The notes beneath the pieces are model-generated. The model searched no databases and was not told the DNA's origin. It worked only from the letters and a program-made list of their open reading frames with translations. This document shows, piece after piece, positions 1-14,113 of a stretch of 15,331 bases of DNA. Within the stretch, counting starts at the first letter, position 1. The number at the start of each line of letters is the position of its first letter. The translations under genes and the position numbers were made by a program. Source of the stretch: a virus (taxonomy: Duplodnaviria; Heunggongvirae; Uroviricota; Caudoviricetes); the IMG/VR virus record IMGVR_UViG_2648501437_000028; one strand, given 5' to 3'.

Positions 1-165
1 ATGGCAAAGCCGATCATCACGCTCAATGGCCTAAAAATCGTCATTATGTTGGGAATGCTGGTCATTATTCTCTGCGGTATCCGTTTTGCCGCCGAGATCA
101 TCGTGCCGTTTATTCTCGCATTATTTATTGCTGTTATATATAACTTATTTCGCATAACACATTGA
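1..165 (+). pseudogene. tqsA: 5' fragment of tqsA (AI-2 exporter, YdgG); frame diverges after ~codon 45 and stops at 163-165, consistent with interruption by the inserted element
   Basis: Frame +1 from base 1 reads [45 protein letters not shown], which I recognise as the TqsA N-terminus, then IYNLFRITH-stop. Too short to appear in the ORF track. Confidence 0.55.
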
Positions 166-185
166 TTTAATTAAATAATTAACAC

Positions 186-233
186 CGCAAAAAGTGCCAA
201 AAATCGCAAAATGACTACACCAGTGACTACACC
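186..233. repeat. Phased A-tracts (CGCAAAAAGT GCCAAAAATC GCAAAAT) followed by tandem TGACTACACC x2 (212-221, 224-233)
   Basis: Read directly from the sequence; A5-6 tracts recur with 10-bp phase (bent-DNA signature), and a 10-bp direct repeat sits ~80 bp inside the inferred junction. Confidence 0.45.
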
Positions 234-251
234 GTTCGGTGCACTGTATGA

Positions 252-276
252 AACAACGTGGAACAAATAGACACAA
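252..276. promoter_or_regulatory. AACAA repeats phased at 10 bp (AACAACGTGG AACAAATAGA CACAA); the 15-mer AACAACGTGGAACAA is identical to 7715-7729
   Basis: Read directly; the same motif family recurs at 7713-7742 and, reverse-complemented, at 14021-14070. Confidence 0.45.
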
Positions 277-344
277 GAAATATACAGGCGGATCATCTTT
301 CCAGGGGGAAGCACACCAATTCATGAGGGGCGTTAATGTCGATA

Positions 345-609
345 TGGGGATCCCCACCTACCGGAATTTTTTTCCGGTTAAACGTTAATCAGGCTGGTGG
401 GCTTTACCTGTTCGGTAGGTGTTATGATTATCGTAATACCTTTCCCCCAATGGGGTAAAAGCATCAACCGTAACGAAAGTCGTTATGGTTGCCACTGATA
501 CCCCAAATTTGGGTATCACGAGTAAGCCCCAAAATCTGGGTGTTACTCTTACTACCCAAACTACGGGTAGTTTCCGTAGTTTCATGGTCGAGTTGCAGAT
601 CTGCAACTC
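345..609. repeat. Cluster of dyad symmetries: TGGGGATCCCCA (345-356), CCGGAA-T5-TTCCGG (361-377), CCCCCAATGGGG (444-455), GATACCCCAAATTTGGGTATC (497-517), CCCCAAAATCTGGG (527-540), CTACCC-AAACTAC-GGGTAG (552-570), GTAGTTTC x2 (567-583), perfect 20-bp palindrome GAGTTGCAGATCTGCAACTC (590-609)
   Basis: Read directly from the sequence; no ORF here has a credible start or composition. Confidence 0.5.
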
Positions 610-863
610 CCCCATTAACCACAGGCGAATTTCCGCCTTCGGTCATTCCTTAATCATCTGCGTAATCATAATGATTATTCAGCAAGCGCAATTTTGCGCT
701 TTGCTTAAAGTTCAGCGAGTTACCGCGCCGACTTCCTCAAATTGAGGTTTCCGAAAATATCAGCGGGTTAGCGATTAAGCTGACCATTAATTAAACTGCG
801 AAAATGTCGTAGTTGTGAGGGGTGTAGCCAACCCATTTTTGGGCCGTCGGGAATATCAACCAG

Positions 864-1145
864 TTACCGCCGCAACCGCTCCGGCTTCTTCCAGTGGTAC
901 GTTATTTTCTCCTTCTCCCGATACATCTCCACGCGGCGACGGTAGGCCAGCAACTCAAGAACTCTGGTTCGTATGTTGCGCATATCCACGCCATTAAGTT
1001 CTATACCATCACGGCGCATCACCTCAGCAACAACACGCGCATAGTTTTCGGCTGTCACGCTGTCCGGCTGCGTGGCCTGTTCGTCAGCCTGCTGGCTGAT
1101 TCCGGCAACGCGGCGGATTAATCCCGTTATTTCGGCTTCTGTCAT
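864..1145 (-). CDS. Hypothetical 93-aa protein, last gene of the packaging operon
   Basis: ORF track; ATG at 1145 preceded by GAGG; starts 13 bp after the terL stop. No recognisable motif. Confidence 0.5.
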   Translation of the reverse strand: MTEAEITGLIRRVAGISQQADEQATQPDSVTAENYARVVAEVMRRDGIELNGVDMRNIRTRVLELLAYRRRVEMYREKEKITYHWKKPERLRR

Positions 1146-1158
1146 GCTGCTGACCTCA

Positions 1159-2820
1159 TTACACCCCGCTAAATTCTTCCAGTTTCTGGCGGTGGCTGTC
1201 GCTTATATCAAAAGCAAAATCCTCATGCTCTGCCTGGAATGTACCAAACGCCATCAGCGCCGCCACGCTCGGGTCTATCTTGTTCGGTGATTTTTTCTTG
1301 TTCGGCTTGATATTGGCGTTCGCGTCACTCTGCATCACGACGTTACTCATCGACCAGGACAACACCGGATCGCCACGATGCACAATCACCCTGCGGTTAA
1401 CAAAAACTTCGAACGATTTCGCCGCCGGACTGAATCTGAGGTAGGTTTGCGGGAACGGCTCCACCTCAAAACCTGCCCCCTGTAATTGCGTTCTGAGATG
1501 CGTGGCGTTCCACGTATCAAAGCCCACCAGCCTGATATTAAATTTCTCCGCGTCCTGCATGATGTCATCTCTGATCCGGTCGTAATCAATGCAGTCGCCA
1601 GGCGTTGTGCGTATCCAGCCTGCTTTAGCCCACTGACGATAGATGGCGCGGTTTTTATTGGCGGGGTTCTGTAGCTGAAATTCCGGCAGATAGTGACGGG
1701 AAACCAGCATAATGGTTTTACCGACCGGAAAGGCATAGCACACGCTGGAAATATCGCTGGTTGATGATAAGTCCAGCCCCGCGTAACACTCCTGGCCGTG
1801 TAAATCTTCCTCCGTGAACGTTCCGGCACACTCAGCCCATGCGCCGTTACCCATCCACGGGGTAGCCCCCTGGCACCAGATATTAAATCGCTTTGTCATC
1901 ATCTCCACCCACTGCGACGGAATACCCCGCGCTTTCTGGATGGTTGAGGCCAGTTTTTCACGATCGACGGAAACATCAATATTAGGGTTCGCCTTTATCC
2001 ACATCGCCGGATCATCAACCTCGTTTTCGTCGTCCAGTTCGTAAATCAGTACAAAAATTGAATCGTTAACCTCTTCGCCGTCCAGGATCTGGCAGCAATA
2101 ATCATAGTGCTGCTTACAGGCTGAAACGACGTTGCTGCCTGATGTGGTAATGGCAAATAACAGCCCTTCGGGACGTGCGCCCATCCCCAGCTCAAGCGCG
2201 GAATAAACGCCGTTATCGGGGTGCAAGTGGTATTCGTCCACGATGGAAAGGCTGGGGTTTGTTCCCTCGATGGTTGCCGCTTTTGCTGCCAGCGGCTTTA
2301 ACAGGCTGTTGCTTTTCGGGTGTATCACCTTATGCGCCTGAATATTCACCCGCCTGCGTAACGGTCGGGATAAAAGGCACATCTGACGCGCATCATCAAA
2401 GACGATCCGCGCCTGGTCACGGCTCACCGCTGCGGTGTAGATATCCTGCTGACCGTTCTCCATAATCAGAAACCAGTTAGCCAGAATCGCGGCGGTCGTG
2501 GATTTCGCATTTTTGCGCGGCACTTCGATAAAGGCGCTCGTGTATTTGCGCCGTCCGGTGGCCTTAACCTTAAAGCCGAGGATGCACGCAAAGGCGAACT
2601 GCTGCCACGGCTCCAGCTCAATGGGTCTGCCACGCATCGGTCCTTTTACGTGCGGGCACACCCTGGAAAAGGCAATAAACCGCTCCACAACCTCACGATC
2701 GAACGTGTAAAGGGGGCTTTTAAGGTCCGAAAAGTACCGTTTAACGGCCTGTTTCAGCCGTTTACAGGCCGGAATTTTGCCCGTTTTTACGTCTTCTGCG
2801 TACTTATTCCAGGCGGTCAA
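1159..2820 (-). CDS. terL: Terminase large subunit (ATPase plus nuclease)
   Basis: 553 aa; Walker A-like PRKNAKST, Walker B-like LSIVDEYH, overall terminase-like layout. Start is TTG at 2820 with GAGGA 5 nt upstream, overlapping the terS end by 17 bp. Confidence 0.85.
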   Translation of the reverse strand: MTAWNKYAEDVKTGKIPACKRLKQAVKRYFSDLKSPLYTFDREVVERFIAFSRVCPHVKGPMRGRPIELEPWQQFAFACILGFKVKATGRRKYTSAFIEVPRKNAKSTTAAILANWFLIMENGQQDIYTAAVSRDQARIVFDDARQMCLLSRPLRRRVNIQAHKVIHPKSNSLLKPLAAKAATIEGTNPSLSIVDEYHLHPDNGVYSALELGMGARPEGLLFAITTSGSNVVSACKQHYDYCCQILDGEEVNDSIFVLIYELDDENEVDDPAMWIKANPNIDVSVDREKLASTIQKARGIPSQWVEMMTKRFNIWCQGATPWMGNGAWAECAGTFTEEDLHGQECYAGLDLSSTSDISSVCYAFPVGKTIMLVSRHYLPEFQLQNPANKNRAIYRQWAKAGWIRTTPGDCIDYDRIRDDIMQDAEKFNIRLVGFDTWNATHLRTQLQGAGFEVEPFPQTYLRFSPAAKSFEVFVNRRVIVHRGDPVLSWSMSNVVMQSDANANIKPNKKKSPNKIDPSVAALMAFGTFQAEHEDFAFDISDSHRQKLEEFSGV

Positions 2821-3160
2821 GCTCGTCCTCTTCTTCTGTTTCCGGTGGGTTTTTACGGCGGCTTATCGGGTCAAAACCGAGCAAGGAGGCCATTTTTATC
2901 ATCACCCTTTCAGCGTCTGATTTCGCGCTTAATGCGGGGTTTCTGCTCTCGCCGCCCTGACTGTTAACAATGCTGAACCCGCGCGCCGCAAGGTCTGCGA
3001 CGGCTTTCCGGTAAATGGAGTAGTTGACACAATACAGTTCCAGATTGCTCCAGTCGGCGGGGGTCAGGTCTCCCCGTTCCGCAAGCTGCCGCGATTTTTC
3101 CCGCCACTGCTTCACGGCGATGTCATCCAGGTAGGCGGGGGCTTTCGGTGGTCTTGCCAT
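2804..3160 (-). CDS. terS: Terminase small subunit (P27-like size and position)
   Basis: 118 aa directly upstream of and overlapping terL, downstream of HNH; acidic C-terminus. Assigned mainly by position and size. Confidence 0.6.
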   Translation of the reverse strand: MARPPKAPAYLDDIAVKQWREKSRQLAERGDLTPADWSNLELYCVNYSIYRKAVADLAARGFSIVNSQGGESRNPALSAKSDAERVMIKMASLLGFDPISRRKNPPETEEEDELDRLE

Positions 3161-3209
3161 GCTTATTTTTCGTCAGATTATTTTTCAAAAAATTCCCGTG
3201 CATAAAAAT

Positions 3210-3275
3210 TTGAGGAGGCGTTCGGTGCCCGGCGGGGTCGGGTTTGTCCTGAAAACGCCCCCCACCCCGTCATAC
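3210..3275. other. GC-rich block in the HNH-terS intergenic region; candidate cos / terminase recognition site
   Basis: GGTGCCCGGCGGGGTCGGG...ACGCCCCCCACCCCG lies in a ~290-bp gene-free gap between HNH and terS, where HK97-type cos sites sit. Position-based inference only. Confidence 0.25.
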
Positions 3276-3448
3276 AGCCTCATCAGCGATTGCGGAAACA
3301 TTCCATAACCTCGCGGTCACGGTCGGTTAATCGCTTCGCTGTGATGCGTTCTGCGCGTCCTGACGCTTTATCTTTATGCCCTGTTTCCTGTGTCTTCCAT
3401 GCGTCACGCTGCCTTATAAGTCCACGGATAAGGCGGTTTTGTTCCCGC

Positions 3449-3889
3449 TCATTCATCAGCGTCATACATCCAGTTATTGCGGTTAGCGGCCCGTTCTTCC
3501 TCTTCACGAAATCCACCTGCGGCACGCTTGCTTTTTGTTGCCGGATCAAGCCATTTCGTTTTCTGGTTATGACACGCCTGGCACAATGGTTGATGGTTCC
3601 ATTCGGGCCAGAAGAGAACATCATCACCGCCATTAATCGGGATAATGTGATCCACCACCACGGCGGGCGTATATATCCCCTTCTCAAGGCATCGCACGCA
3701 TAACGGGTTTTTACTCAGATACATGGCGCGGTATTTGTCCCACTGTCTGGAATATCCACGCGCGCGGCGGTGTCCTCGTCTGGCATCCTCTGCACGCCAT
3801 GCCGCCCGCCTGTGCTCCTCACACTTGCCGGATTTAACGCGCCTGTTACAGCCTGGTTCTGTGCATCGTCTTAATGGTTGCCACGGCAT
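3449..3889 (-). CDS. HNH endonuclease (packaging-associated)
   Basis: 146 aa; N-terminal Cys cluster CTEPGCNRRVKSGKCEEH and HNH core CVRCL...VVDHIIP...NHQPLCQACHNQK. Its ATG overlaps the connector stop. Confidence 0.85.
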   Translation of the reverse strand: MPWQPLRRCTEPGCNRRVKSGKCEEHRRAAWRAEDARRGHRRARGYSRQWDKYRAMYLSKNPLCVRCLEKGIYTPAVVVDHIIPINGGDDVLFWPEWNHQPLCQACHNQKTKWLDPATKSKRAAGGFREEEERAANRNNWMYDADE

Positions 3890-4185
3890 CAGTACACCCC
3901 CACATCACGGTAAGCCGTCCAGAGTGCGCCTATCGTCATGGGTACGCGTGTTTTTGCGTTATCCGCGACAATCTGGCGATTTTCATACAGGTGAGCGATA
4001 AACATCATGCAGCCAATCTTTATGGCTGGCGTGAACTCCAGCCCGTCATCAAAGCGCCTGCCTATGTGTATCTGGCACGCCTCAAGCGATGCGGCAATGT
4101 ATCCGCTGATTAACTGGTCTTCATCGTCGCCATCGATGCGGCAATGGAGTTTCACTTCTTCCAGGGTGATAAGTTCTTCTGTCAT
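3889..4185 (-). CDS. Head-tail connector (gp6-like) protein
   Basis: 98 aa between adaptor and HNH; ATGA overlap with the adaptor stop. Assigned by size, position and general resemblance. Confidence 0.55.
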   Translation of the reverse strand: MTEELITLEEVKLHCRIDGDDEDQLISGYIAASLEACQIHIGRRFDDGLEFTPAIKIGCMMFIAHLYENRQIVADNAKTRVPMTIGALWTAYRDVGVY

Positions 4186-4520
4186 TTTTCCGCGCCCTCA
4201 CGACAAAGAATTTCAAGGCGTGTCCTGGCGGCATCCGGCAGCGGCTGCCCGATGATATTCAGTACACGCCCCGCCAGCGGCCCCGTACTGACCTTTATCC
4301 GGCTGGTGGCGTTGATGTCCTTCCGGTACCGTATCCAGATCCTTACGGTACCAATCGCCAGCTCTGCGCCCGATGAAATGGCCTCCTTGCTGCTGACCAT
4401 GTTCACGCTTGCCCAGAGTGTGTGACCGTCCTCCCACGTTTCGAGTATTTCGCCGGTTATATCCCTGGTCTGTTTCAGGGTCTGAATCGTTATCCTGTCA
4501 CGCAGTCGCCCTATGTTCAT
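4182..4520 (-). CDS. Head-tail adaptor / head closure protein
   Basis: ORF track gives 4182-4562; I prefer the internal ATG at 4520, which overlaps the portal TGA (ATGA) and gives a ~112-aa product. Identity is by position after portal. Confidence 0.55.
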   Translation of the reverse strand: MNIGRLRDRITIQTLKQTRDITGEILETWEDGHTLWASVNMVSSKEAISSGAELAIGTVRIWIRYRKDINATSRIKVSTGPLAGRVLNIIGQPLPDAARTRLEILCREGAEK

Positions 4521-5728
4521 TCCGGTTTTTCTCCCTCGCTGATTTTTACTTCCTGTTTCCATGCCTGGCTGAACTCATCACCACCATCACGCGGTGACAG
4601 ACCTTCACGTTCGCGGGCTTCGTTCGGACACATAACGCCGGATTTGATGCCGCGCTCATAGGTGGCAAAGCGTTCGCCAGGTGTGGCCCGTAACAGGTCC
4701 GCGCTGTCAAACTCCACCTGATACCGGATACCAGGTACAGGCGAGGCCACCAGCAGGGCGTTTTTTATCTGCTGCTCAAAGTTCGCCAGCCACGGGCGCA
4801 TCGTCATGGTGAGAAATGCGCGGCTTGCCTCGCTGAAATTGCTGTAGGTGCTGTTGCTGTATTCCTGCAAAAAAATCGGCGAGACGTTGAACATTCGGGC
4901 GATGTCTTCAATGGTGAAGCGACGGGAGGCCAGCCATTCAGCATCCTGATTACTCATGCCCAGCTGCTGATAGCTCATACCCCCTTCAAGGATGGGCGTT
5001 TTTCCGGCGTTTCTGGCCCCTTTGTAGCGTTCCAGTGCGGCTAATGCCTGTTTGCCCTTCACGCCGTCCAGCCATTCGCCTGACGTGATAACCCCTGCCG
5101 CCATCATGCCATCACGCATCACGCTCGCGCCGTGGCGTTGTTGGGCCAGCCCAAGCCCCAGCGATTCGCGGCAGATGGTTACAGGTGAGCGCCCCATAAA
5201 GCCGTCATCCGTGGAGTAACGAAGGTGAAGTACTTCCCACGGTAAATAGTTGCGGGTGTTTCCGGTGTAGGCGTCAGTGATGCAGTAGCGCCAGTTGTGT
5301 TCGCCTGTCTGCTCCACGTTCACCGACTGCGGCGGGTAAGGATGTAAAGCCGCCGGAAAACCATCACGCCCCCACTGAATCACCGCATAAGCATTACCGT
5401 TTAACAGGCAGTGGCGGATCATCATTCGCTTAAACTGGTAGGGGGTTTGCCATGCGTTCGGGCGCTCGTTGAGGATGTGATCGACCGGATGAGAATCAAG
5501 CCACTCGCGGGCCTCCTTCCCCTTCTCATTGCGTACCAGGTACAGGTAACACGGCATGGTAGCCACCGCCTCAGAGATGACCGTCACGGCGTTCATGACG
5601 GCGGGCAGTGATTCCGCTGTCCCCGATGATACGTACTCACCCGCCCCCGTGTTCGATGTGCCAGCCAGCGCCATAAATTCATCCAGCGTCATGCTGCGCT
5701 GCTCTTTTTTTCTTCTGAAAGGCCACAT
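4517..5728 (-). CDS. Portal protein, HK97-like
   Basis: 403 aa, typical portal length and composition; GGGGGTG Shine-Dalgarno 5 nt before the ATG at 5728; immediately follows the protease. Confidence 0.8.
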   Translation of the reverse strand: MWPFRRKKEQRSMTLDEFMALAGTSNTGAGEYVSSGTAESLPAVMNAVTVISEAVATMPCYLYLVRNEKGKEAREWLDSHPVDHILNERPNAWQTPYQFKRMMIRHCLLNGNAYAVIQWGRDGFPAALHPYPPQSVNVEQTGEHNWRYCITDAYTGNTRNYLPWEVLHLRYSTDDGFMGRSPVTICRESLGLGLAQQRHGASVMRDGMMAAGVITSGEWLDGVKGKQALAALERYKGARNAGKTPILEGGMSYQQLGMSNQDAEWLASRRFTIEDIARMFNVSPIFLQEYSNSTYSNFSEASRAFLTMTMRPWLANFEQQIKNALLVASPVPGIRYQVEFDSADLLRATPGERFATYERGIKSGVMCPNEAREREGLSPRDGGDEFSQAWKQEVKISEGEKPE

Positions 5729-5729
5729 A

Positions 5730-6302
5730 TCACACCCCCGCTAAATCCACCCACCAGCGGCGATTATCCGCACGCGGCATTTTTTCGGGGTGCTGCTCAT
5801 ACAGGGAACGGCGGGCCAGCTCCACGCCGGAATCGGGGTAAGCCGGTACCGATGTAACGGTAATTTCGTACAGTTCCGCCACCAGCACGGTGCGCACGCA
5901 TGGATCTGTTGTGGTATCCCATACATCCTTACGGGAGCGAAAGCCAAAGCTCATCCCCGAGATGTCCCCACGCTTAACCAGTTCGATAACGTCGCGCCCT
6001 GTACTGGTATCCGGTGGGGTCAGTTCAAAGCGTAACCCTGTTTCGTCCTCTTCCAGTTTCAGCGTGCCGGAACGGGTGCGCCCCAGTAACATGCTGTGGT
6101 CATGCTCATACAGGCCGCGAACGTCATTACCCGCCGCAAGCCACTCAGTAAACGCCCCCCGCTGGAATTTTTCGTGAAACTCCCCCCATAGCAGTTCTGA
6201 AAGCTTATCCCAGCGAACAACGTAGCCCGTCAGCGTACCGGCTCCGCTGGTAGTGATTTCCGATGACCGGATTTCCATACTCTTCATAATTTTTTCACCC
6301 AT
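5730..6302 (-). CDS. Prohead maturation protease, HK97 family
   Basis: 190 aa with the HK97-protease-like stretch GDISGMSFGF and conserved His/Ser context. Start could be 6302 or the internal ATG at 6287. Confidence 0.8.
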   Translation of the reverse strand: MGEKIMKSMEIRSSEITTSGAGTLTGYVVRWDKLSELLWGEFHEKFQRGAFTEWLAAGNDVRGLYEHDHSMLLGRTRSGTLKLEEDETGLRFELTPPDTSTGRDVIELVKRGDISGMSFGFRSRKDVWDTTTDPCVRTVLVAELYEITVTSVPAYPDSGVELARRSLYEQHPEKMPRADNRRWWVDLAGV

Positions 6303-6341
6303 AAAACACTAAAGGGGCTTTTAAGCCCCTTCTGTATGCTG

Positions 6342-7499
6342 TTAATCGTCGTCCTGTGGCAGTTCCAGAATCTTGATCGCGTTCGAATCCACCACGCCAC
6401 CGCCTAAATATTTCTGCGTGAAAATTTTGATGAAGCCCGGCTCTGTGAGGTTGTCCGGTCTGGTGCGAACACCTGTTTCGTGATCAACAATGTAGTAACC
6501 GCGTTTGAAGTCACCCAGGGCAATAACGTTATCCGGCATAAACTCCAGATATTCGACCGGAAGGCCCAGTAACGTATCAGGATCACCCGCCTGTAAACGG
6601 TCGCGCCAGATGTAATCACCGTTCGCGTTCTTCACCTTCTGAAGTTTTGCCGCCGTCGTGGAGTTAACCACCCAGACCGCGTTTTTGCGGTATTTTTTAC
6701 GTAATGCAAATTTCAGGTCGATCAGCGGGTCCGCAGATGTCCACGCCAGAGATTCGGAAGGTTTAATTACCTGCAACGTACCAAAATCACGCTCTTTGTC
6801 GTTCTTCTCTGCACGGGGTACGGATAAAAAGCCTTTTGCTTTTTTGTCACCGTCGCCCACAACCAGATCGCTTTCTTCGGTTTCCGTGAAGTTGTCGCCA
6901 ATCTCGCCCGTCAGCCATGAAAGGATGTCCACATCGGAAAAATCCACGATTTCCTGCGTGGTGCGCGGGTACGCATAGACCGGATACAGCTTAATGCTCA
7001 CCTCGTTAATCTGCGGGGTGCTGGTCTGTTCGCGTGCCTTACCCTCTTCACCGTGGTTAACGGTCGCACCGCCAGCGGAAACAAGCTGCTTAAACTCGTT
7101 GCTGCTGATTTTCTTCACGGTACAGATGCGGCGCATGGTGGATTCATCCGTCAGCATTCGCATGATTTCGGTGTTCAGTTCGGGGATAACGGTATAACCA
7201 CCATCAGCGGGAACGCCTGTACTTAATGCGCGGGTTTCACCTGTCAGAATGTAGTGACGTAGTTCGGCTGGGTCAGTGGTCTGACTGCTTTTACCTGGCT
7301 TGCTGCGCTCTTCGTCTGCAATGGCTTCAAGGCGGGAAATGTCTTTATCGAGGGATTCAGCTTTAGCGCGTAATTCGTCAAATTTTGCGCCCTCAGCATC
7401 GTTAAGACTGCGGTTTTCTTTTTCCGCGTTCTCCAGCATGTCGCGCATCTGATTTTTAATGGCGGTTTTCTGCTGGCGTAATTCGATTATTCTCGGCAT
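6342..7499 (-). CDS. Major capsid protein, HK97 fold, with N-terminal coiled-coil delta/scaffold-like domain
   Basis: 385 aa; charged, coiled-coil-like N-terminal ~100 aa (LRAKAESLDKDISRLEAIADEE) then a capsid-like body; no separate scaffold gene. Confidence 0.85.
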   Translation of the reverse strand: MPRIIELRQQKTAIKNQMRDMLENAEKENRSLNDAEGAKFDELRAKAESLDKDISRLEAIADEERSKPGKSSQTTDPAELRHYILTGETRALSTGVPADGGYTVIPELNTEIMRMLTDESTMRRICTVKKISSNEFKQLVSAGGATVNHGEEGKAREQTSTPQINEVSIKLYPVYAYPRTTQEIVDFSDVDILSWLTGEIGDNFTETEESDLVVGDGDKKAKGFLSVPRAEKNDKERDFGTLQVIKPSESLAWTSADPLIDLKFALRKKYRKNAVWVVNSTTAAKLQKVKNANGDYIWRDRLQAGDPDTLLGLPVEYLEFMPDNVIALGDFKRGYYIVDHETGVRTRPDNLTEPGFIKIFTQKYLGGGVVDSNAIKILELPQDDD

Positions 7500-7712
7500 A
7501 AAAAAAGTCCTGGGGTTAAGTAAGGAACTCCAGGACGCGGCAAAAACTCAACCGTTTTTCATAAGGAAATCAGCAATCGCACCGATCGTTTTCCCGCCTG
7601 GTAATGAATATTGGCGAGAACATTAACAGGCGGAAAAGTGGCCCCAGCGTCCTGGCACCACGGGCGAGAATAATCATGATTCAGTTCGGGTAAAATATGC
7701 CGATCCGCTCAG

Positions 7713-7742
7713 TGAACAACGTGGAACAACCACGAACAAATA
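7713..7742. promoter_or_regulatory. Three 10-bp units GAACAACGTG GAACAACCAC GAACAAATAA upstream of the capsid operon
   Basis: Read directly; shares the 15-mer with 252-266; lies between the terminator after the PerC-like gene and the capsid leader. Confidence 0.45.
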
Positions 7743-7761
7743 ATTTACAAAACATGACAAA

Positions 7762-7779
7762 AAGCCGGATTGCTCCGGC
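7762..7779 (-). terminator. Probable intrinsic terminator after the PerC-like gene
   Basis: AGCCGGA-TTGC-TCCGGCT stem-loop followed on the minus strand by TTTTTGT. Confidence 0.5.
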
Positions 7780-7786
7780 TGTGTGA

Positions 7787-8059
7787 TTATCTGTCCTGGT
7801 AATTTCGCCATATTTCATTACCAGCACCATCCATACCCATTTCGGCATAAGTGCGATCGACCGCCTTTTTCAGGTCTCCGTAGTTATCCGGCGGCTCCGG
7901 TGGCCTCTGTGCCTTCCTGGAACATTCCAGCCGTCGCATCGTGATGTGATGCCGTTCCTTGTCTGTCTCCACCAGTTGCATGACTTCACCCCATCGCGCC
8001 GACGCTCTCCGGTAAAAGCCTTTCGCCTCCAGTTCTTCCGCTATGCGGTCATGTACCAT
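7787..8059 (-). CDS. PerC-family transcriptional regulator-like protein
   Basis: About 90 aa from the ATG at 8059 (the track start at 8068 is GTG); AEELEAKGFYRRASARWGEVM resembles the PerC/Pch N-terminal signature; GAGGGGTGGGG Shine-Dalgarno upstream. Confidence 0.6.
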   Translation of the reverse strand: MVHDRIAEELEAKGFYRRASARWGEVMQLVETDKERHHITMRRLECSRKAQRPPEPPDNYGDLKKAVDRTYAEMGMDGAGNEIWRNYQDR

Positions 8060-8071
8060 CGTCCCCACCCC

Positions 8072-8482
8072 TCAGAACGGAATATCATCACCGTAAGGGT
8101 CATCGCCTCCCGCTGGTGGCTGATTACCCTGTGTGCCTGTGGTCTTGCGTCGGCTCCCACCAGGACGTGCCGCACGGGCACTGATTACGCTGTCTGCAAT
8201 AACCTGATAACCCTGCCGCGTTTCCCCGTTCTGTCCGGTCCACTGGCTGACCTGCATCGTGCCGGATACGCTGGCAACGTCGCCTTTTTGATGTTTAGCC
8301 AGGAAGTCGGCCTGCTTACCAAATGCGATGACCGATAGCCATAACGTCGCCTGTCCATCCTGTGCCTGGCTGCATGGCAGCGATACCGCCATACGCGCCA
8401 GCGTCATCGGTGTACCCTTGCTGGTCTGTTTTACCTGCGGGTCGTCCACCAGCCGCCCGTAAGCTGCTATCTGTGCTGTCAT
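8072..8482 (-). CDS. ssb: Single-stranded DNA-binding protein
   Basis: 136 aa; Gly/Pro/Gln-rich tail ending in the acidic DDIPF motif characteristic of SSB; ATGA overlap with the upstream gene. Confidence 0.8.
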   Translation of the reverse strand: MTAQIAAYGRLVDDPQVKQTSKGTPMTLARMAVSLPCSQAQDGQATLWLSVIAFGKQADFLAKHQKGDVASVSGTMQVSQWTGQNGETRQGYQVIADSVISARAARPGGSRRKTTGTQGNQPPAGGDDPYGDDIPF

Positions 8483-8757
8483 GATTCCACCTCTCCGGTT
8501 TTAACGTTGATGGTTGTTACCTGTTCCGCTTCGGCAATCTCCCGCTCTGTCAGCGTGGCAAAATTTGCCGCCGTCGTGGTCATGAATGCGCTTATCAGTT
8601 CGGGATGTGCTTTCGCGTATCCTTCCCCCGCGTGGCGGTCTATCGTTCTGATTGCCACCTTTAAAGCGTGCTCTGTCATGTCTAACGCGCGATATTTCGG
8701 TTCTGTTCTGTCTCTGCGTTTTTTGAGTGATTTATTAAATTTCCCTGAAGTGTGCAT
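8479..8757 (-). CDS. Hypothetical 92-aa protein, first gene downstream of the putative ori
   Basis: ORF track; ATG at 8757 preceded by GAGGGGG; stop overlaps the ssb start. Confidence 0.5.
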   Translation of the reverse strand: MHTSGKFNKSLKKRRDRTEPKYRALDMTEHALKVAIRTIDRHAGEGYAKAHPELISAFMTTTAANFATLTEREIAEAEQVTTINVKTGEVES

Positions 8758-8804
8758 ATTTATTTTTACCCCCTCGTTTAAAAAGTTTTGAGTTGTGCCT
8801 CCCC

Positions 8805-9030
8805 TTGTCTACCTTATCTACCTTAGTGGCCCTCATACCAGTAATGGCGCGGCTTTCAGCGGGGTAGAGTGCTTTTATCCACTATCTACCCCGTGTCTAC
8901 CTCCCTGTCTGATTCAGGTAAAATCAGGTAGAGAGGGTAGATAGTGGGTAGACAGTAAAAAAAGGTTATCTACCTAACTTAATGCACTGAATTAAATGTA
9001 TTTTTCTTTACTCAGGTAGACAGGGTAGAC
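8805..9030. repeat. Iteron array (about 12 copies of GGTAGAC/GTCTACC-type 7-8-mers in both orientations) with flanking AT-rich stretches; putative replication origin
   Basis: GTCTACC 8805, TATCTACC 8813, GGTAGAG 8861, TATCTACC 8881, GTCTACC 8893, CAGGTAGA 8923, GGGTAGAT 8933, GGGTAGACAG 8944, TTATCTACC 8964, CAGGTAGACAGGGTAGACAG 9011-9030; lies immediately 3' of the primase gene. Confidence 0.6.
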
Positions 9031-9045
9031 AGCAATTACAAAAAA

Positions 9046-10800
9046 TTATAAAAACGCGTCGCACTCGTCTGTTGTTATTGCGTTAGTCTGCGTTACTCCC
9101 TTAACTTTCCGCGTAATATATTCATGTCCGTAAACTTTCGCGGCTGGCTTCATAGCCTTGCCAAAGTCATTTACGTTTAGCGGTTTGCTCCTGCCTGCGT
9201 ACGCCATAAACGCCAGATAGACGCGGTAAAGGCTGTTTCTGGTCGTGTACTTCACTGAATCGCCACCGCCGCCCATCATCAGGCCGCGTGCTTCCTCCAG
9301 AAAATTCAGGAACTGGCAAAACTCAATAACCGGATCCGTCTGTTGCTTTATTGCCAGAGCTTCATCACCGTCACGCTGTTCCAGTAGTAAAGCCCGTGCC
9401 TTCTCAGGGTCGGTAAAGTTCGCCAGCAATCGGCGGATAATGACAGGGATTTCAGCCGCGATCTTTTCCGGTAGCTCCCTGTCTTTTTCGGCCTCACTGA
9501 CGATATTGTCGAAACGGAAAATCACGCGACGACGTGCCACACCTCCGGCCCGTTCGGTGAATATCATCGGGTTATTGTTGGTCGCCAGCACCACCGCCCT
9601 GATTACCGCCGTGAAACGCTTTTCGTATTTCGGGTTAATTTCCACGGGGTCACCGCCCGTGATTTTCTTGATGCCCGTTCCTTCGCCTGTATATTTCGGC
9701 TGGTCAGCCAGGACGATAAGACGACTCCCGACAACCTGCGCACGTCCACCAGCATCATCAAGCGATGTCATTTCAGCGCTTACCGTGTTCTGTTTCCCTG
9801 CCAGAAGGCTGGCTATGTGTGTGAATGTACTTTTACCGCTCCCGCCGTCTCCGGTGGCCTCAATAAACATCTGCCAGTCGTACCGGTTCGCCATAATCAT
9901 GTACAGCGCGGCACATATACGCATCATCTTGCGCGGGTCTTTTCCGGCTGCGTGCTCAAGCCATTTATGAAAGTTTGGCGCGTTATCGCGGATGTTCTCC
10001 CCTGGTGCTGGTGGCGTGTACTCAATGCCGTTGTGCGTGGTGATCCAGTTCTCCGGCGTGTGCGGGGAAAATTCCCCCGTTTTCAGGTCAAGCGCACCAT
10101 TGGCGAACGGCAACAAATCGCCGGACGGCTCGCCCATTGGTTCGGCAATAACTTTTAACGCTTCCACGGCGTTATTGATTACGCGCTTGCTGAAAGTGGC
10201 CCTGTGCTCTGAATAGATCGCCACCATTTCGCGGCTAAGTTCCATTGTGCTGACCGGACACCATACCCCGCCGCGCCATACGTGAACGATTTCACTTTCA
10301 GGATGTACGCAAACGCCATCAAAGCGATCGGCAAGCAGCTGCGCGCGCTCACTGTCCGCCATCTGCGAAAGTTGCGCCTTTTGCTTTACCGGAAGCTCAA
10401 TGACCAGACCATCAGAAAGATTCTGGCGCTCACGGGCCAGATATTCGCGCCAGTTCTCCACCTTCTGACCGTGCATACCATCAGGGTAAAAATTTGCATC
10501 CTGTACGCCTGCCGCCGCCAGCTTCTGACCAATCGCCTTTATCATTACTGGCGCAAGATATCCGGCCCTGAATATGCGCACGGATTTTCTGCCTTCCGGC
10601 ACAATTTGCAGCTTATCCAGTTCGGATAACTGCTGCTCCCCAAGCCACACAGGAGGCTCATTATCTCCGGCCATACGCGCGTCATGTTCCTGCCATTGTT
10701 TTGCGTGTGACCAGGCATCACTACCCGCAAAAATAATGACTTCTGTTTCTTTGTGTTTTATGCCGCGTGACTGCTGTTTTACGTTCGGTGCCAGTTTCAT
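9046..10800 (-). CDS. Primase/helicase, P4-alpha-like (TOPRIM-like N-terminus plus SF3/D5-type NTPase)
   Basis: 584 aa; Walker A GDGGSGKST, Walker B-like LIVLADQ; N-terminal acidic primase-like segment; ATGA overlap with the upstream gene. Confidence 0.8.
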   Translation of the reverse strand: MKLAPNVKQQSRGIKHKETEVIIFAGSDAWSHAKQWQEHDARMAGDNEPPVWLGEQQLSELDKLQIVPEGRKSVRIFRAGYLAPVMIKAIGQKLAAAGVQDANFYPDGMHGQKVENWREYLARERQNLSDGLVIELPVKQKAQLSQMADSERAQLLADRFDGVCVHPESEIVHVWRGGVWCPVSTMELSREMVAIYSEHRATFSKRVINNAVEALKVIAEPMGEPSGDLLPFANGALDLKTGEFSPHTPENWITTHNGIEYTPPAPGENIRDNAPNFHKWLEHAAGKDPRKMMRICAALYMIMANRYDWQMFIEATGDGGSGKSTFTHIASLLAGKQNTVSAEMTSLDDAGGRAQVVGSRLIVLADQPKYTGEGTGIKKITGGDPVEINPKYEKRFTAVIRAVVLATNNNPMIFTERAGGVARRRVIFRFDNIVSEAEKDRELPEKIAAEIPVIIRRLLANFTDPEKARALLLEQRDGDEALAIKQQTDPVIEFCQFLNFLEEARGLMMGGGGDSVKYTTRNSLYRVYLAFMAYAGRSKPLNVNDFGKAMKPAAKVYGHEYITRKVKGVTQTNAITTDECDAFL

Positions 10801-11096
10801 TTTTTACCCCTGAATCCGTTAATCATGGTTTTCAGCTTCTGGATGTTTGCCCGTGCCCTGGCGTTGCTGGTGGACACGTTATGCGGCGCGGTCTGTACCA
10901 GAGAAAAATCACGCCGGAACTGATAAACAGGCATCACGCAATCATATTCGTAACCTTCACGGCGGTAGGTTACGCGCCGTTCTTCCACGCCCTTAATCAT
11001 TACCGTGCCGCCGTACTGGTCGCGGTAAATATCGCCGCGCGTAAATTTAGGGTGAGTGTTGCCACTGGCAGTTAAGCCAGAATATTTAAGTTTCAT
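10797..11096 (-). CDS. Hypothetical 99-aa protein, translationally coupled to the primase
   Basis: ORF track; GGAGA Shine-Dalgarno before the ATG at 11096. Confidence 0.5.
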   Translation of the reverse strand: MKLKYSGLTASGNTHPKFTRGDIYRDQYGGTVMIKGVEERRVTYRREGYEYDCVMPVYQFRRDFSLVQTAPHNVSTSNARARANIQKLKTMINGFRGKK

Positions 11097-11101
11097 TATT
11101 T

Positions 11102-11335
11102 TTATTCTCCGGTGTGCTGTTCTTTATATCTGTCGTGCAATAGATCTATTTCTTGCAGTTCCATTATTACAGGCTCAAGAAGCGTTATTAATGCCGTGGC
11201 AATTCTTGATTTTTGTTTGTCGCGTTCATTGTCGCCAAGTGTTTCAAGCCATATGCGCAATATTTCCAGCATGTTTTCACTGTGAGAAAGTGCAAGAAAT
11301 GCGCGGTCTATTGTTTCGTGGTAAATATCACGCAT
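11102..11335 (-). CDS. Hypothetical 77-aa protein
   Basis: ORF track; GAGGA before the ATG at 11335. Confidence 0.5.
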   Translation of the reverse strand: MRDIYHETIDRAFLALSHSENMLEILRIWLETLGDNERDKQKSRIATALITLLEPVIMELQEIDLLHDRYKEQHTGE

Positions 11336-11401
11336 GGCTTACATCCTCAGGAAATTTTCTTCTATAACGCGCCTCTGCCACATATTCCGCATAATCGGCG
11401 G

Positions 11402-11560
11402 CGATATTCAGTACATCAAGCCCCGTTGATTTATATTCTCTCGTGGAAAGTAAGAAAAAGCCGCTCTAATAAGTTCTGGCATTGACGAAAGCGCATCAGC
11501 CGCATCATCAGGAACGCCGGAAAATTCCTGTTTCAGGGAATTAAAACGATCATCACGCAT
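11402..11560 (-). CDS. Possible 52-aa small protein (below the track length cutoff)
   Basis: ATG at 11560 preceded by AGGGGGG and overlapping the upstream stop (ATGCGTGA); translates MRDDRFNSLKQEFSGVPDDAADALSSMPELIRAAFSYFPRENINQRGLMY. Confidence 0.3.
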
Positions 11561-11918
11561 GTTTACCCCCCTGAATGACCTGATAACCGCAACTGGTCAG
11601 CAACTCGATAAATTCCGGCAGTGTGCCGAAACAGCAATCATCACGCAGCCGTTCACAGGATACCTCGACGCCGTTTTCGTAGTGACTCACCATACATCCG
11701 GTAAAATGCAGATCATCATCGTGATGGCTCGTTGACGGCTTAATCAGTCGCGCACGTTCCGCCAGTTCCAGCAATGCTTCAACGCTTCCGGCAATTGCAC
11801 CATCCGGCAGGTGATAATTACGCACTATGCGCCCGTTCTCCACATTGACCAGCAACTGCCCGGTAAATTTCTCATCAAACTGAATGCTGTTAAGGTCAGA
11901 AATTGACAGATTATGCAT
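11553..11918 (-). CDS. Hypothetical ~121-aa protein
   Basis: ORF track gives 11553-11936; the internal ATG at 11918 has a perfect AGGAGG 7 nt upstream and overlaps the upstream stop. Confidence 0.5.
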   Translation of the reverse strand: MHNLSISDLNSIQFDEKFTGQLLVNVENGRIVRNYHLPDGAIAGSVEALLELAERARLIKPSTSHHDDDLHFTGCMVSHYENGVEVSCERLRDDCCFGTLPEFIELLTSCGYQVIQGGKHA

Positions 11919-12351
11919 GGTGCACCTCCTGCACATCAGCCATGATAATTTTTCCGGCCTTATCCAGTGCCTGATCGGCTTTTAGCTGCACAAATGCTAA
12001 ATGGAAGATGCATTCTGATTCTCTGGCTGCGTGTTTATGCGCCCTGTCAGCAATAACAGAAATATCAATAAGCGCGTGCATCAGCGTAGTGAGCGCGGCG
12101 GCGGCTGCGTCCGGTGTGGTTTTATTGCACATGTACCCCTCCGCATTTTTTTCGTTAGAAATAAGCGTTCTTCTTTCCTGTTCATCGCTCAGGAATACGC
12201 AGACCTCACCGCTAAGGCGTTTAAGTAAGCCGATGATTGCCCCTGATTCGCTGTCGGTCATCATGCTAGGGTAATCCTCTGCCAGTGCGCAAATAACTTC
12301 GATTTGGTGGGCGCGTTCTGCTGCCTGTTGTAGTGTGATTTCCTGGCTCAT
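11911..12351 (-). CDS. Hypothetical 146-aa protein
   Basis: ORF track; ATGA overlap with the upstream 66-aa ORF. Confidence 0.5.
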   Translation of the reverse strand: MSQEITLQQAAERAHQIEVICALAEDYPSMMTDSESGAIIGLLKRLSGEVCVFLSDEQERRTLISNEKNAEGYMCNKTTPDAAAAALTTLMHALIDISVIADRAHKHAARESECIFHLAFVQLKADQALDKAGKIIMADVQEVHHA

Positions 12352-12548
12352 AAGCCTACCCCCTGACGAATACGGGCAGCAAATACCATCACGCAGCCAG
12401 CCGGAGATTGCTGGCGTGCTTCCTGTTCGCTGGTGGCCTCAATGGTAATCACGCGCGGTTGTGCCGTGCTCAGGGCGATAAAACGCCAGATGTATTTATT
12501 CAGGTTGTGCGAGTCCCGCCCTTGCGGGTGTGTGGTATGATTTCTCAT
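12348..12548 (-). CDS. Hypothetical 66-aa protein, first gene of the leftward operon
   Basis: ATG at 12548 preceded by GAGGTAG; it is the 3' part of the 384-aa track ORF, whose upstream extension I reject. Confidence 0.45.
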   Translation of the reverse strand: MRNHTTHPQGRDSHNLNKYIWRFIALSTAQPRVITIEATSEQEARQQSPAGCVMVFAARIRQGVGL

Positions 12549-12583
12549 AGCTACCTCGATACTCTCGTTATCGTTGGTGGTTA

Positions 12584-12724
12584 GAAGCCCCGTTACTGCT
12601 CCAACAGTGCGGGGCTTCGTCGTTTCAATTGCTGAATTGCATGTATCAGCACTTGTGGTATTCACATTACATTTAGGTGAATACCATTTCAAGTCTTTTT
12701 TGGTATTCACTTTTGTATTACACT
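12584..12724. promoter_or_regulatory. Divergent control region: long hairpin GAAGCCCCG...CGGGGCTTC (12584-12618) and operator-like repeats TGGTATTCAC-N11-GTGAATACCA (12656-12686), TGGTATTCAC (12701-12710), GTATTACAC (12715-12723)
   Basis: Read directly; lies between the start of the leftward operon (12548) and the start of the RHH gene (12754). Confidence 0.5.
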
Positions 12725-12753
12725 GCATCCCGTTATTAATGGGAGGTGCAAAC

Positions 12754-13059
12754 ATGTCCAGGAGTTCTGTTAACAATAAGTCACAGCAACTGAATGCCAG
12801 ATTTCCACATGAAGTAGTGAGTGGCATTGAGGCATCCCTACAGTCAGGGGAAACTAAAGCGAATTTTATAGTTACGGCTGTACGCGGTGAGATCGCCCGG
12901 CGCCAGGCAGAAGGAAGTGGAGAAAATCCCCTGGTTTCTTCGCTCGATGCACTGGCGCAGGTGGAAAAACTCGGAATCAAAGCCGCCGAGGAGATCGGGC
13001 AGCTCGTCACTGTCGCACGTGAAGAACTCCAGCGCCGCAAGACCAAAGAACCAGAGTAA
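12754..13059 (+). CDS. Ribbon-helix-helix (CopG/Arc/MetJ-like) DNA-binding protein; candidate repressor of the switch
   Basis: 101 aa from the ATG at 12754 (GGGAGGTG Shine-Dalgarno); N-terminal NARFPHEVVSGIEASLQSGETKANFIVTAVRGEIARR fits a beta-strand/helix/helix pattern; the track ORF starts further upstream at 12574. Confidence 0.55.
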   Translation: MSRSSVNNKSQQLNARFPHEVVSGIEASLQSGETKANFIVTAVRGEIARRQAEGSGENPLVSSLDALAQVEKLGIKAAEEIGQLVTVAREELQRRKTKEPE

Positions 13060-13116
13060 TCACCATCAGCGCCGTGGTGTAAGGTATTACGGCGCATTGC
13101 TATGCAGGACAACACA

Positions 13117-13290
13117 ATGACCGATAAAGAATTGACCAAAACATTATCACCGGCACGGAAAAGACGGCGCAGAAAGATAGAGCATGAATCAGAAAGATTC
13201 GCGCCATGTGCTTTTGCCCTTGAGCAATTCCTTAAAGAGTACAGGGAAAAGCGCTCATTGCAGGTATGGCAACGAACTGAACCAGACTGA
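13117..13290 (+). CDS. Small, highly basic 57-aa protein
   Basis: ATG at 13117 with AGGAC upstream (track ORF starts at 13102); contains the RKRRRRK run; function unknown. Confidence 0.4.
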   Translation: MTDKELTKTLSPARKRRRRKIEHESERFAPCAFALEQFLKEYREKRSLQVWQRTEPD

Positions 13291-13385
13291 TTGCATTGCC
13301 CACCAGCCTGATAACGGCTATCATCCCCGTGCTTATGTTTGGGATCACACACACAAACGGCGCAGCGGGTTATCTGTTCAGAAAG

Positions 13386-13413
13386 GCGGCTCCATTTCGG
13401 GGCCGCTTTTTTT
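13386..13413 (+). terminator. Intrinsic terminator, possibly bidirectional, between the convergent plus-strand pair and alpA
   Basis: GCGGCTCC-ATTTC-GGGGCCGC stem (one G-U pair) followed by TTTTTTT on the plus strand; A-run on the other side. Confidence 0.6.
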
Positions 13414-13559
13414 ATACCTGAAAAACCCCAATTTTGTTGTTTTTCAGTTTCACCAGGGCGAACGAATCCCCGCCCACGTTCTGGCGTATATTCAATCTTC
13501 ATGGTTATAGCTCTGTGTTCAGATGATTGATGTGTGGCGGCTGCGTGCCGCCAGCGTGA

Positions 13560-13748
13560 TTAATGAACTGCCTTGCAGCTATCCTTCCAGGCCAGAACCT
13601 CGGATAAAGACCAGCCAACGGAACGACCGCCAAGTTTACGACGTGATGGGAATTGTCCGGCCTTTTCCAGGCGGTAGCGACACGTACGGCTAAGGCCGGT
13701 TAGTTTTTCGCATTCTTTTTCACGTATAAACCGATCAGTGCTTAACAC
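13560..13748 (-). CDS. alpA: AlpA/Vis-family (excisionase-like) regulator
   Basis: LTGLSRTCRYRLEKAGQFPSRRKLGGRSVGWSLSEVLAWK matches the AlpA-type winged-HTH pattern. I prefer the GTG start at 13748 (AGGGGGG 5 nt upstream, ~62 aa) over the track TTG start at 13829. Confidence 0.7.
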   Translation of the reverse strand: MLSTDRFIREKECEKLTGLSRTCRYRLEKAGQFPSRRKLGGRSVGWSLSEVLAWKDSCKAVH

Positions 13749-14020
13749 TATTGCCCCCCTTTCGTTTCTTAAAGAGTCATCAGGTGTCTTATTGTGTCGT
13801 ATTGTTCCCGCTAGAGTGATGAATGGCAAATACTGAGGATGTATGATTTACAGAAAATGAAACAGTAAGAATAAAATCTTTTAAATTCATGTTAATACAA
13901 AGGCATAAAATATTGTTCCATGCCTTTTTTCTCGCTCTTTAAAGAGTGATTCGCTAGTGTACAAAAAACCAGTAACACATTAAAAATCAGCTACTTATAA
14001 ATCCGTACGCTTTTTCGCCT

Positions 14021-14070
14021 CTTGTTCGTAGTTGTTCCACATTGTTGCTCATTGTTGCACGTTGTATCTG
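14021..14070. promoter_or_regulatory. Five TTGTT-containing 10-bp units in tandem (CTTGTTCGTA GTTGTTCCAC ATTGTTGCTC ATTGTTGCAC GTTGTATCTG)
   Basis: Read directly; TTGTTCCAC is the reverse complement of the GTGGAACAA core at 258-266 and 7721-7729; located in the int-alpA intergenic region. Confidence 0.5.
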
Positions 14071-14080
14071 TTCGCATATC

Positions 14081-14096
14081 CAGTATGCGCATACTG
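14081..14096. promoter_or_regulatory. Perfect 16-bp palindrome CAGTATGCGCATACTG just 3' of the int stop
   Basis: Read directly; no T-tract on the side that would make it an int terminator, so more likely a protein-binding site. Confidence 0.35.
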
Positions 14097-14113
14097 AAAA
14101 AACACGAAAAAAA

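Follow-up and report, generated by a model that had tools for sequence, protein, structure and literature searches.

A predicted capsid-forming PICI of the EcCIEDL933 lineage splits tqsA in Escherichia coli

Introduction

The cf-PICI (capsid-forming phage-inducible chromosomal island) family of satellites was reportedly described in 2022–2023. Its prototype is EcCIEDL933, which was mobilised in experiments by the helper phages HK106 and HK446, and E. coli members of the family use six attB sites (10.1101/2022.09.08.507074). The island that we found at the phoQ-roxA site of strain EDL933, ~15.46 kb between its repeats, fits EcCIEDL933 in published size and gene content. It is inserted right after the phoQ stop codon (core AAATATGTCC), where nothing is disrupted.

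Other mobile elements do disrupt their target, and tqsA is among the genes concerned. It has been listed as a conserved E. coli gene disrupted by prophage integration (Bobay et al. 2013, PMC3603311) and newly put forward as a candidate case of regulated gene integrity (Mageeney et al. 2020, PMC7192596), the supplement of the latter containing the TIGER islands Eco282.16.tqsA, Eco33.11.tqsA and Eco557.15.tqsA, plus Eco160.11.phoQ. As far as the available parts of these two surveys go, their cases match the one described here at the level of the gene, since the same host gene is involved, its UPF0118/AI-2E domain is disrupted without restoration, and the islands are of 11–16 kb at a recurrent site. 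They differ in that, within the same parts, the tqsA site is catalogued without its occupant being named as a cf-PICI. A paper mentioning both tqsA and cf-PICIs was not found in the literature searched, and the explicit link between the two may be a small addition rather than a discovery.

Two further groups of systems are informative. The Stx prophage in mlrA, the phage in comK and the skin element in sigK, for which a role as switches has been proposed or shown, also have site-specific integrases that target the interior of a conserved gene and an attP without gene repair, such that precise excision would restore the target. The tqsA case differs from them in that its predicted occupant is a satellite, an element that normally excises as the helper phage lyses the cell, and in that the target is independently dead in one carrier clone. 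The integrases that use tRNA 3′ ends, or icd in the case of e14 and phage 21, resemble the present one in being arm-binding tyrosine integrases with a short identity core and with arm-type repeats, which are candidate sites in the present case. However, their attP carries a substitute gene end, whereas here the identity is of 9 bp and in-frame stops lie ahead of the core.

In this study, we analysed a 15,331-nt stretch of viral DNA (IMG/VR record IMGVR_UViG_2648501437_000028, Caudoviricetes), hereafter the window, whose first bases belong to tqsA. With a probability of about 0.9, it represents a cf-PICI of the EcCIEDL933 lineage that entered tqsA via site-specific recombination by a tyrosine integrase, splitting the gene without repairing it. 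The split of tqsA is real, and both the kind of element and the integration target are already known; with the target catalogued in 2013 and 2020, no new kind of biology is opened.

Results and Discussion

The island interrupts tqsA within codon 46

Three features mark the left junction:

1–137, plus strand: host tqsA 5′ fragment (codons 1–45 and two bases of codon 46), by identity with K-12.
1–165, plus strand: chimeric 54-aa ORF composed of TqsA residues 1–46 and eight element-encoded residues, by translation.
129–137, no strand: attL core TGCTGTTAT, the 9-bp overlap of the K-12 alignment blocks on FORC_069.

Window positions 1–137 are identical to nt 1–137 of tqsA of K-12 MG1655 (137/137) and were matched in 5,424 of 5,426 complete E. 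coli genomes. Homology to tqsA ends after base 137, within codon 46, which changes from ATT to ATA and still encodes isoleucine. The foreign tail of the chimeric ORF, YNLFRITH, ends at a TGA stop (163–165). The initial annotation had taken the start of this ORF for the TqsA N-terminus, as is confirmed by the equality of residues 1–46, and its estimate of ~45 TqsA codons followed by nine foreign ones was correct to within one codon, the actual numbers being 46 and eight. An unrelated paralogue, which it had raised as a source of the similarity, was rejected on the basis of the 100% identity, the median of one match per genome and the tqsA synteny in the closest genomes. No Pfam family was detected in the 54-aa ORF, which retains the native tqsA promoter and start and corresponds, in the TqsA structure 7NB6, to helix H1 plus the N-terminal half of H2.

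For the right junction, which the window does not reach, we used three close complete genomes, FORC_069 (locus L001), B1_2 (L005) and SCU-204 (L006), which are 99.8% identical to the window and are strains other than the window's own. The best match among complete RefSeq E. coli genomes had 99.8% identity over 97% of the window, and no genome identical to the window was found among them; the mismatch of the best genomes corresponds to a mosaic stretch (12378–13019) that occurs in other islands. All three relatives have the gene order mdtJI, ydgV, tqsA 5′ fragment, island, integrase, tqsA 3′ fragment, pntBA. RefSeq (PGAP) calls both tqsA halves pseudogenes in each of them, the counterpart of 1–137 being a pseudogene without a C-terminus.

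It had also been proposed in the initial annotation that the rest of tqsA lies beyond the integrase and that a short direct repeat should be found at both junctions, and both proposals held. In the closest complete genomes the remaining tqsA restarts just past the integrase, and in the alignment of FORC_069 to K-12 the left flank extends to tqsA nt 137 while the right flank begins at nt 129. The two alignment blocks thus overlap by 9 bp, forming a direct repeat, TGCTGTTAT (tqsA nt 129–137, codons 43–46), at both junctions. The breakpoint was set by this empty-site alignment, without a repeat search, and therefore chance plays no part in it. In FORC_069 the attR copy is at L001 35846–35854 and window base 15331 corresponds to L001 35658, by which homology attR is expected 188–196 nt past the window end, so that the island is estimated to measure ~15,390 bp (~15.4 kb) from repeat to repeat. 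The repeat is identical across the three relatives and occurs once in the empty site, attB, of K-12 and of MS8324, the latter being identical to the former at this site. Such a distribution, with one copy on either side of the island and a single copy in the uninterrupted gene, is characteristic of site-specific recombination. An assembly artefact was rejected, the same junctions being present in ~200 independent complete genomes.

The mechanism that we favour would involve crossover within the 9-bp core TGCTGTTAT. Integration would leave the 54-aa chimeric stub under the tqsA promoter and, ~15.4 kb away beside the integrase gene, a 3′ fragment (codons 44–344) expected to have neither promoter nor start, so that AI-2 export by TqsA would be lost during residence of the island.

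Comparison with EcCIEDL933 points to a re-targeted integrase

The window island resembles EcCIEDL933 in its whole layout. The two share the gene order int, alpA, icd-like, rep, ssb, perC, major capsid protein, protease, portal, two connectors, HNH, TerS, TerL and a 93-aa ORF, as well as a size of ~15.4 kb. Identity is 97.4% over the 6.9-kb capsid and packaging module (window 852–7785) and 95% from alpA to int. They differ in the replication protein, which has a DUF927 domain in EDL933 versus a D5_N/DUF5906 primase here, and above all in the site, EcCIEDL933 being located after phoQ and the window island inside tqsA.

The two integrases are identical at 374 of 409 residues (91%), and 30 of the 36 differences are within the first 200 residues, a region that contains the arm-binding (4–91) and central (127–196) Pfam domains. 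The attP arms are ~94% identical, yet exactly 30 bp at the attP centre differ, GCTGTTATATATAACTTATTTCGCATAACA being present here versus ATGTCCTTTTATCACCACAGCAAGGCAACC in EDL933. Both arms contain tandem (A)GTGACTACACC pairs as candidate arm-type sites for an integrase with an Arm-DNA-bind_3 domain; a repeat search placed them as follows:

212–233, plus strand: tandem TGACTACACC, two copies with a period of 12, candidate arm-type integrase sites of the P′ arm.
L001 35694–35717, beyond the window: matching pair of AGTGACTACACC, two copies, candidate sites of the P arm.

Together, the conserved arms, the 91% identical integrase and the swapped 30 bp indicate that tqsA is the proper site of a re-targeted integrase and not an off-target accident. 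The pair of EcCIEDL933 and the tqsA island, judged from their sequences, has the look of an uncomplicated natural example of an integrase that changed its target, and would make a handy natural system for studying target change in tyrosine integrases. The loci compared were window 129–170 and 14114–15331, and EDL933 (L008) 9348–9357 and 23408–24818. An unlikely further reading is that the lineage gave up the neutral phoQ-roxA site for tqsA because the satellite or its host would profit from losing TqsA.

Some variation was seen around this lineage. At the phoQ-roxA site the O157:H7 strain NE92 has, instead of EcCIEDL933, an ~11-kb island (L003 17973–29200) with a different small terminase, a lambda-like capsid protein, a decoration protein and the same integrase type; therefore, different satellite types share this integrase and site. 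In B1_2 (L005 14228–15628) a RepA-family helicase replaces the D5-type primase, the island, site and junctions being otherwise the same. The replication module is freely exchanged within the lineage, in which a primase, a RepA helicase and a DUF927 protein have been found. A scan of species-representative genomes for the integrase, which is uninformative on the use of tqsA outside E. coli, gave one locus only, at 91% identity in Shigella flexneri, where the ORF list suggests an interrupted integrase frame.

Split tqsA genes recur and are unlikely to form a reversible switch

A K-12 query of 280 bp with the core at its midpoint was uninterrupted in 5,170 of the 5,426 complete genomes, and full-length tqsA matched 5,677 places in 5,423 genomes. 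The latter numbers imply ~254 genomes with two partial places, and hence that tqsA is split at this point in ~254 of 5,426 complete E. coli genomes (4.7%). The same counts give no indication of an intact second tqsA copy, a circumstance under which the initial annotation would have failed. Its description of the target as unusual should be softened: protein-coding genes destroyed by integration are a minority case among integrases, but tqsA is a recurrent (~4.7%) and already catalogued target.

Among the split genomes, 196 have the left end of the window island, and the window is covered to 80% or more in 150. Identical junctions are shared by at least three island variants (the primase version, the RepA-helicase version of B1_2 and variants in the Icd-like region). 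These variants are spread over two or more host allele backgrounds, between which the tqsA 3′ fragments differ by 17–18 nt. About 1 in 20 complete E. coli genomes probably is without functional TqsA through this satellite. Numerous carriers belong to a human extra-intestinal clone, one strain of which has the label ST1193, and loss of TqsA is to be weighed when strains are compared for AI-2 export or biofilm.

That clone is distinguished by a second lesion. The tqsA 3′ fragment of SCU-204 has a nonsense mutation, S298* (L006 17655–17657), and a 63-mer containing it was found in 57 complete genomes of one clone, the ST1193-labelled strain being one of them. Comparison of genome lists showed that at least 29 of these genomes carry the island and that at least 11 have an uninterrupted tqsA, ten with exactly the same allele and the eleventh with 99.9% identity. 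The internal stop was read directly in MS8324, which has an empty site (L007 1640–2674), and over the 906 positions that follow the core this strain has 0 differences from SCU-204, whose site is filled. Filled and empty sites with identical flanks indicate that the island was gained or lost precisely within one clone. As tqsA is dead in this clone with or without the island, excision could restore nothing there.

These observations bear on the alternative that survives best, namely that the island is a reversible switch of the kind termed regulated gene integrity or active lysogeny, in which precise excision restores tqsA and couples AI-2 export and biofilm to the state of the satellite. As in regulated gene integrity, the target is split without restoration and would be inactivated as a result. 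Recombination between the two 9-bp repeats would re-form tqsA without any change of sequence, neither int nor alpA is damaged, filled and empty sites exist in one clone with tqsA alleles that are otherwise identical, and tqsA is among the candidates that are listed in the available part of Mageeney et al. (2020, PMC7192596). However, the filled and empty sites fit simple gain equally well, and in that clone the S298* mutation is present regardless of the island (57 genomes), leaving nothing to restore. In addition, the near-identical sister EcCIEDL933 resides at a harmless site after the phoQ stop codon, which suggests that the choice of target is not tied to tqsA biology, and PICI excision normally leads to packaging and lysis of the cell by the helper, with no repaired cell surviving. 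We therefore regard as unlikely a switch of this kind, in which the island would excise under defined conditions such as helper-phage infection or SOS. If the switch were true, a resident cf-PICI would silence AI-2 export and alter quorum signalling and biofilm formation.

The split gene is not repaired and TqsA is most probably inactive

Under the preferred reading of a splitting, unrepaired insertion, the far junction should not supply tqsA with a new 5′ end. In the initial annotation the gene was considered split unless such an end existed, with a restored tqsA ORF at the right junction as the point to check; no restored ORF is present and the element gives no new in-frame 5′ end. At attR, translation in the tqsA frame gives ...K * * N A V I L N..., the two stops being TGA and TAA, which lie two codons ahead of the right repeat. 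An ATG overlapping the right repeat is in another frame and opens a 25-aa ORF, MLLFLTRWCNTWSAGECRVYWRCRF. The earliest in-frame starts of the 3′ fragment are GTG at codon 51 and ATG at codon 54, neither preceded by a recognisable Shine-Dalgarno-like sequence. A crude consensus scan of 900 bp around attR (L001 35300–36200) found no sigma-70-like promoter. Window 1–1200 has one weak promoter-like and one terminator-like site, below the counts in shuffled controls, and neither of the two scans revealed an obvious outward promoter. The attP, which has only the 9-bp core and no substitute 5′ end, therefore leaves tqsA split and unrepaired.

The consequences for the protein can be gauged from its domain and structure. 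Intact TqsA scored 268.8 bits against Pfam AI-2E_transport (profile positions 2–326) and the best possible 3′ product 232.2 bits (positions 43–326), the domain thus being shortened by 41 profile positions, whereas the 5′ stub had no match. In the TqsA cryo-EM structure (7NB6) the five protomers of the pentamer contact each other on the cytoplasmic side mainly through helix H1 (T7–F29), and H2 (A31–W57) is one long helix embedded in the membrane. With a break at codon 46, H1 is taken away and H2 is cut in mid-helix, and for this reason tqsA is very probably inactive. Loss of TqsA function, and with it of AI-2 export, is thus most probably the state of the cell while the island is resident.

It is very unlikely that tqsA nevertheless stays functional through translation of the 3′ fragment from GTG51 or ATG54, with the product exporting AI-2 either alone or as a split protein together with the 54-aa stub. 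That fragment does keep 291 of 344 residues and 232 bits against AI-2E_transport and has no further lesions in FORC_069 and B1_2, and the stub has a native promoter and start. Against this, the candidate starts are without a promoter-like site or Shine-Dalgarno sequence, H1 would be on a separate peptide with H2 halved and followed by eight foreign residues, and both halves are pseudogenes according to RefSeq (PGAP).

Beyond the window, RefSeq annotates a 60-aa hypothetical ORF (WP_001332680.1, L001 35658–35840, plus strand), which starts opposite the integrase start, on the other strand. This ORF shares its frame with the tqsA 3′ fragment, from which it is separated by TGA, TAA and two codons. 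This sharing of frame is probably fortuitous.

Gene content assigns the island to the cf-PICIs

All genes of the island are on the minus strand. The principal features are the following:

138–15331, minus strand: body of the integrated, predicted cf-PICI, by gene content, with ~187 nt more past the window to attR.
864–1145, minus strand: conserved 93-aa hypothetical protein, the last island gene (phrog_1561, E 2.9e-56, unknown function).
1159–2820, minus strand: large terminase subunit (TerL), with TerL_ATPase and TerL_nuclease domains (PF03354, PF20441).
2804–3160, minus strand: small terminase subunit (TerS) of the P27/Terminase_4 type (PF05119, E 1.3e-23).
3449–3889, minus strand: HNH endonuclease of the packaging module (PF01844, E 1.8e-8).
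3889–4185, minus strand: gp6-like head-tail connector (PF05135).
4182–4520, minus strand: head completion (head closure) protein (PF05521), with limits according to RefSeq for FORC_069.
4517–5728, minus strand: portal protein (PF04860, E 2.5e-90).
5730–6302, minus strand: HK97-type prohead protease (PF04586, E 3.6e-48).
6342–7499, minus strand: HK97-fold major capsid protein (PF05065, E 1.5e-61).
7787–8068, minus strand: PerC-family transcriptional activator, accessory (PF06069, E 4.6e-43).
8072–8482, minus strand: single-stranded DNA-binding protein, SSB (PF00436).
9046–10800, minus strand: primase/replication initiator (D5_N, DUF5906, Pox_D5; phrog_864 DNA primase, E 1e-175).
13560–13829 (RefSeq 13560–13748), minus strand: AlpA-family regulator/excisionase (PF05930, E 1.5e-16; phrog_2790).
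14114–15331, minus strand: tyrosine integrase (Arm-DNA-bind_3, Phage_integrase).

The integrase has a PF00589 score of 60.2 bits and the motifs ARTVELR, HDIRRT, GHQ and RVYNHSRY, in the context R...HxxR...H...Y. The window ends at its ATG, and RefSeq places the start at a GTG 12 nt past the window end. Between AlpA and the primase there are an Icd-like/repressor-like ORF and several small ORFs.

The arrangement is that of the cf-PICIs: the integrase is at one end and is followed by alpA and then by a primase/rep module; the island has its own capsid genes (PF05065, PF04586, PF04860, PF05521 and PF05135, all above the curated cut-offs) and its own HNH, TerS and TerL; and it is tail-less, lysis-less and ~15.4 kb in length, the class measuring about 10–16 kb. 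Within the sensitivity of a profile search, the 20 ORFs scanned against Pfam included no tail or lysis family, and those left unassigned by Pfam matched only repressor/Icd-like or unknown-function families when re-scanned against PHROGs. On these sequence features the insert is classified as a cf-PICI. A known phage was rejected as its identity, the phage collection having given only 75–79% matches, to terminase and portal segments.

Induction of Gram-negative PICIs requires alpA (10.1101/2022.09.08.507074). By analogy, we infer that a helper would induce the window island via AlpA and that its DNA would be packaged in its own small capsids, to which borrowed helper tails would be added; an active integrase and helper-dependent mobilisation with stolen tails would be part of this life cycle.

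A further alternative, that the insert is no satellite but what is left of a prophage after decay of its tail and lysis genes, is very unlikely, for although every structural gene has phage homologues and the RefSeq annotation uses generic phage names, the tail-less layout of ~15.3–15.7 kb has all its ORFs intact and is found in at least 150 genomes at tqsA and elsewhere in EDL933, the capsid and packaging module is 97.4% identical to that of EcCIEDL933, an experimentally proven helper-dependent satellite, and none of 50,697 phage records shared more than 13% of the island.

Further observations were made on individual parts of the island. The PerC gene is conserved in EcCIEDL933 and in the O157 PICI, both of which also have the 93-aa ORF; PerC homologues are regulators of the LEE pathogenicity island in attaching-effacing E. 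coli. Window 12348–13502 (minus strand) contains an unbroken 384-aa ORF. In relatives this locus is occupied by two or three Icd-like pieces, with a YlcI/YnfO gene encoded on the other strand. Only residues 295–382 of the 384-aa ORF match a known family (phrog_6196, repressor/Icd-like). In the window, the mosaic stretch 12378–13019 has a combination that is absent from every complete RefSeq E. coli genome.

An Rfam scan of the whole window gave no family at gathering score, and thus neither a tRNA or sRNA target nor a known RNA in the left end of the island is indicated. This left end (window 166–863) consists of ~700 bp of non-coding DNA that contains a 33-nt imperfect inverted repeat (499–531/537–569) and a 19-nt imperfect inverted repeat (581–599/600–618). 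Three TCAGCGAGTTACCGC-like 15-mers are at 712, 760 and 856, with a spacing of 48 and 96. Parts of the left end, 156–493 and 707–876, are conserved in EcCIEDL933 and in the classical O157 PICI.
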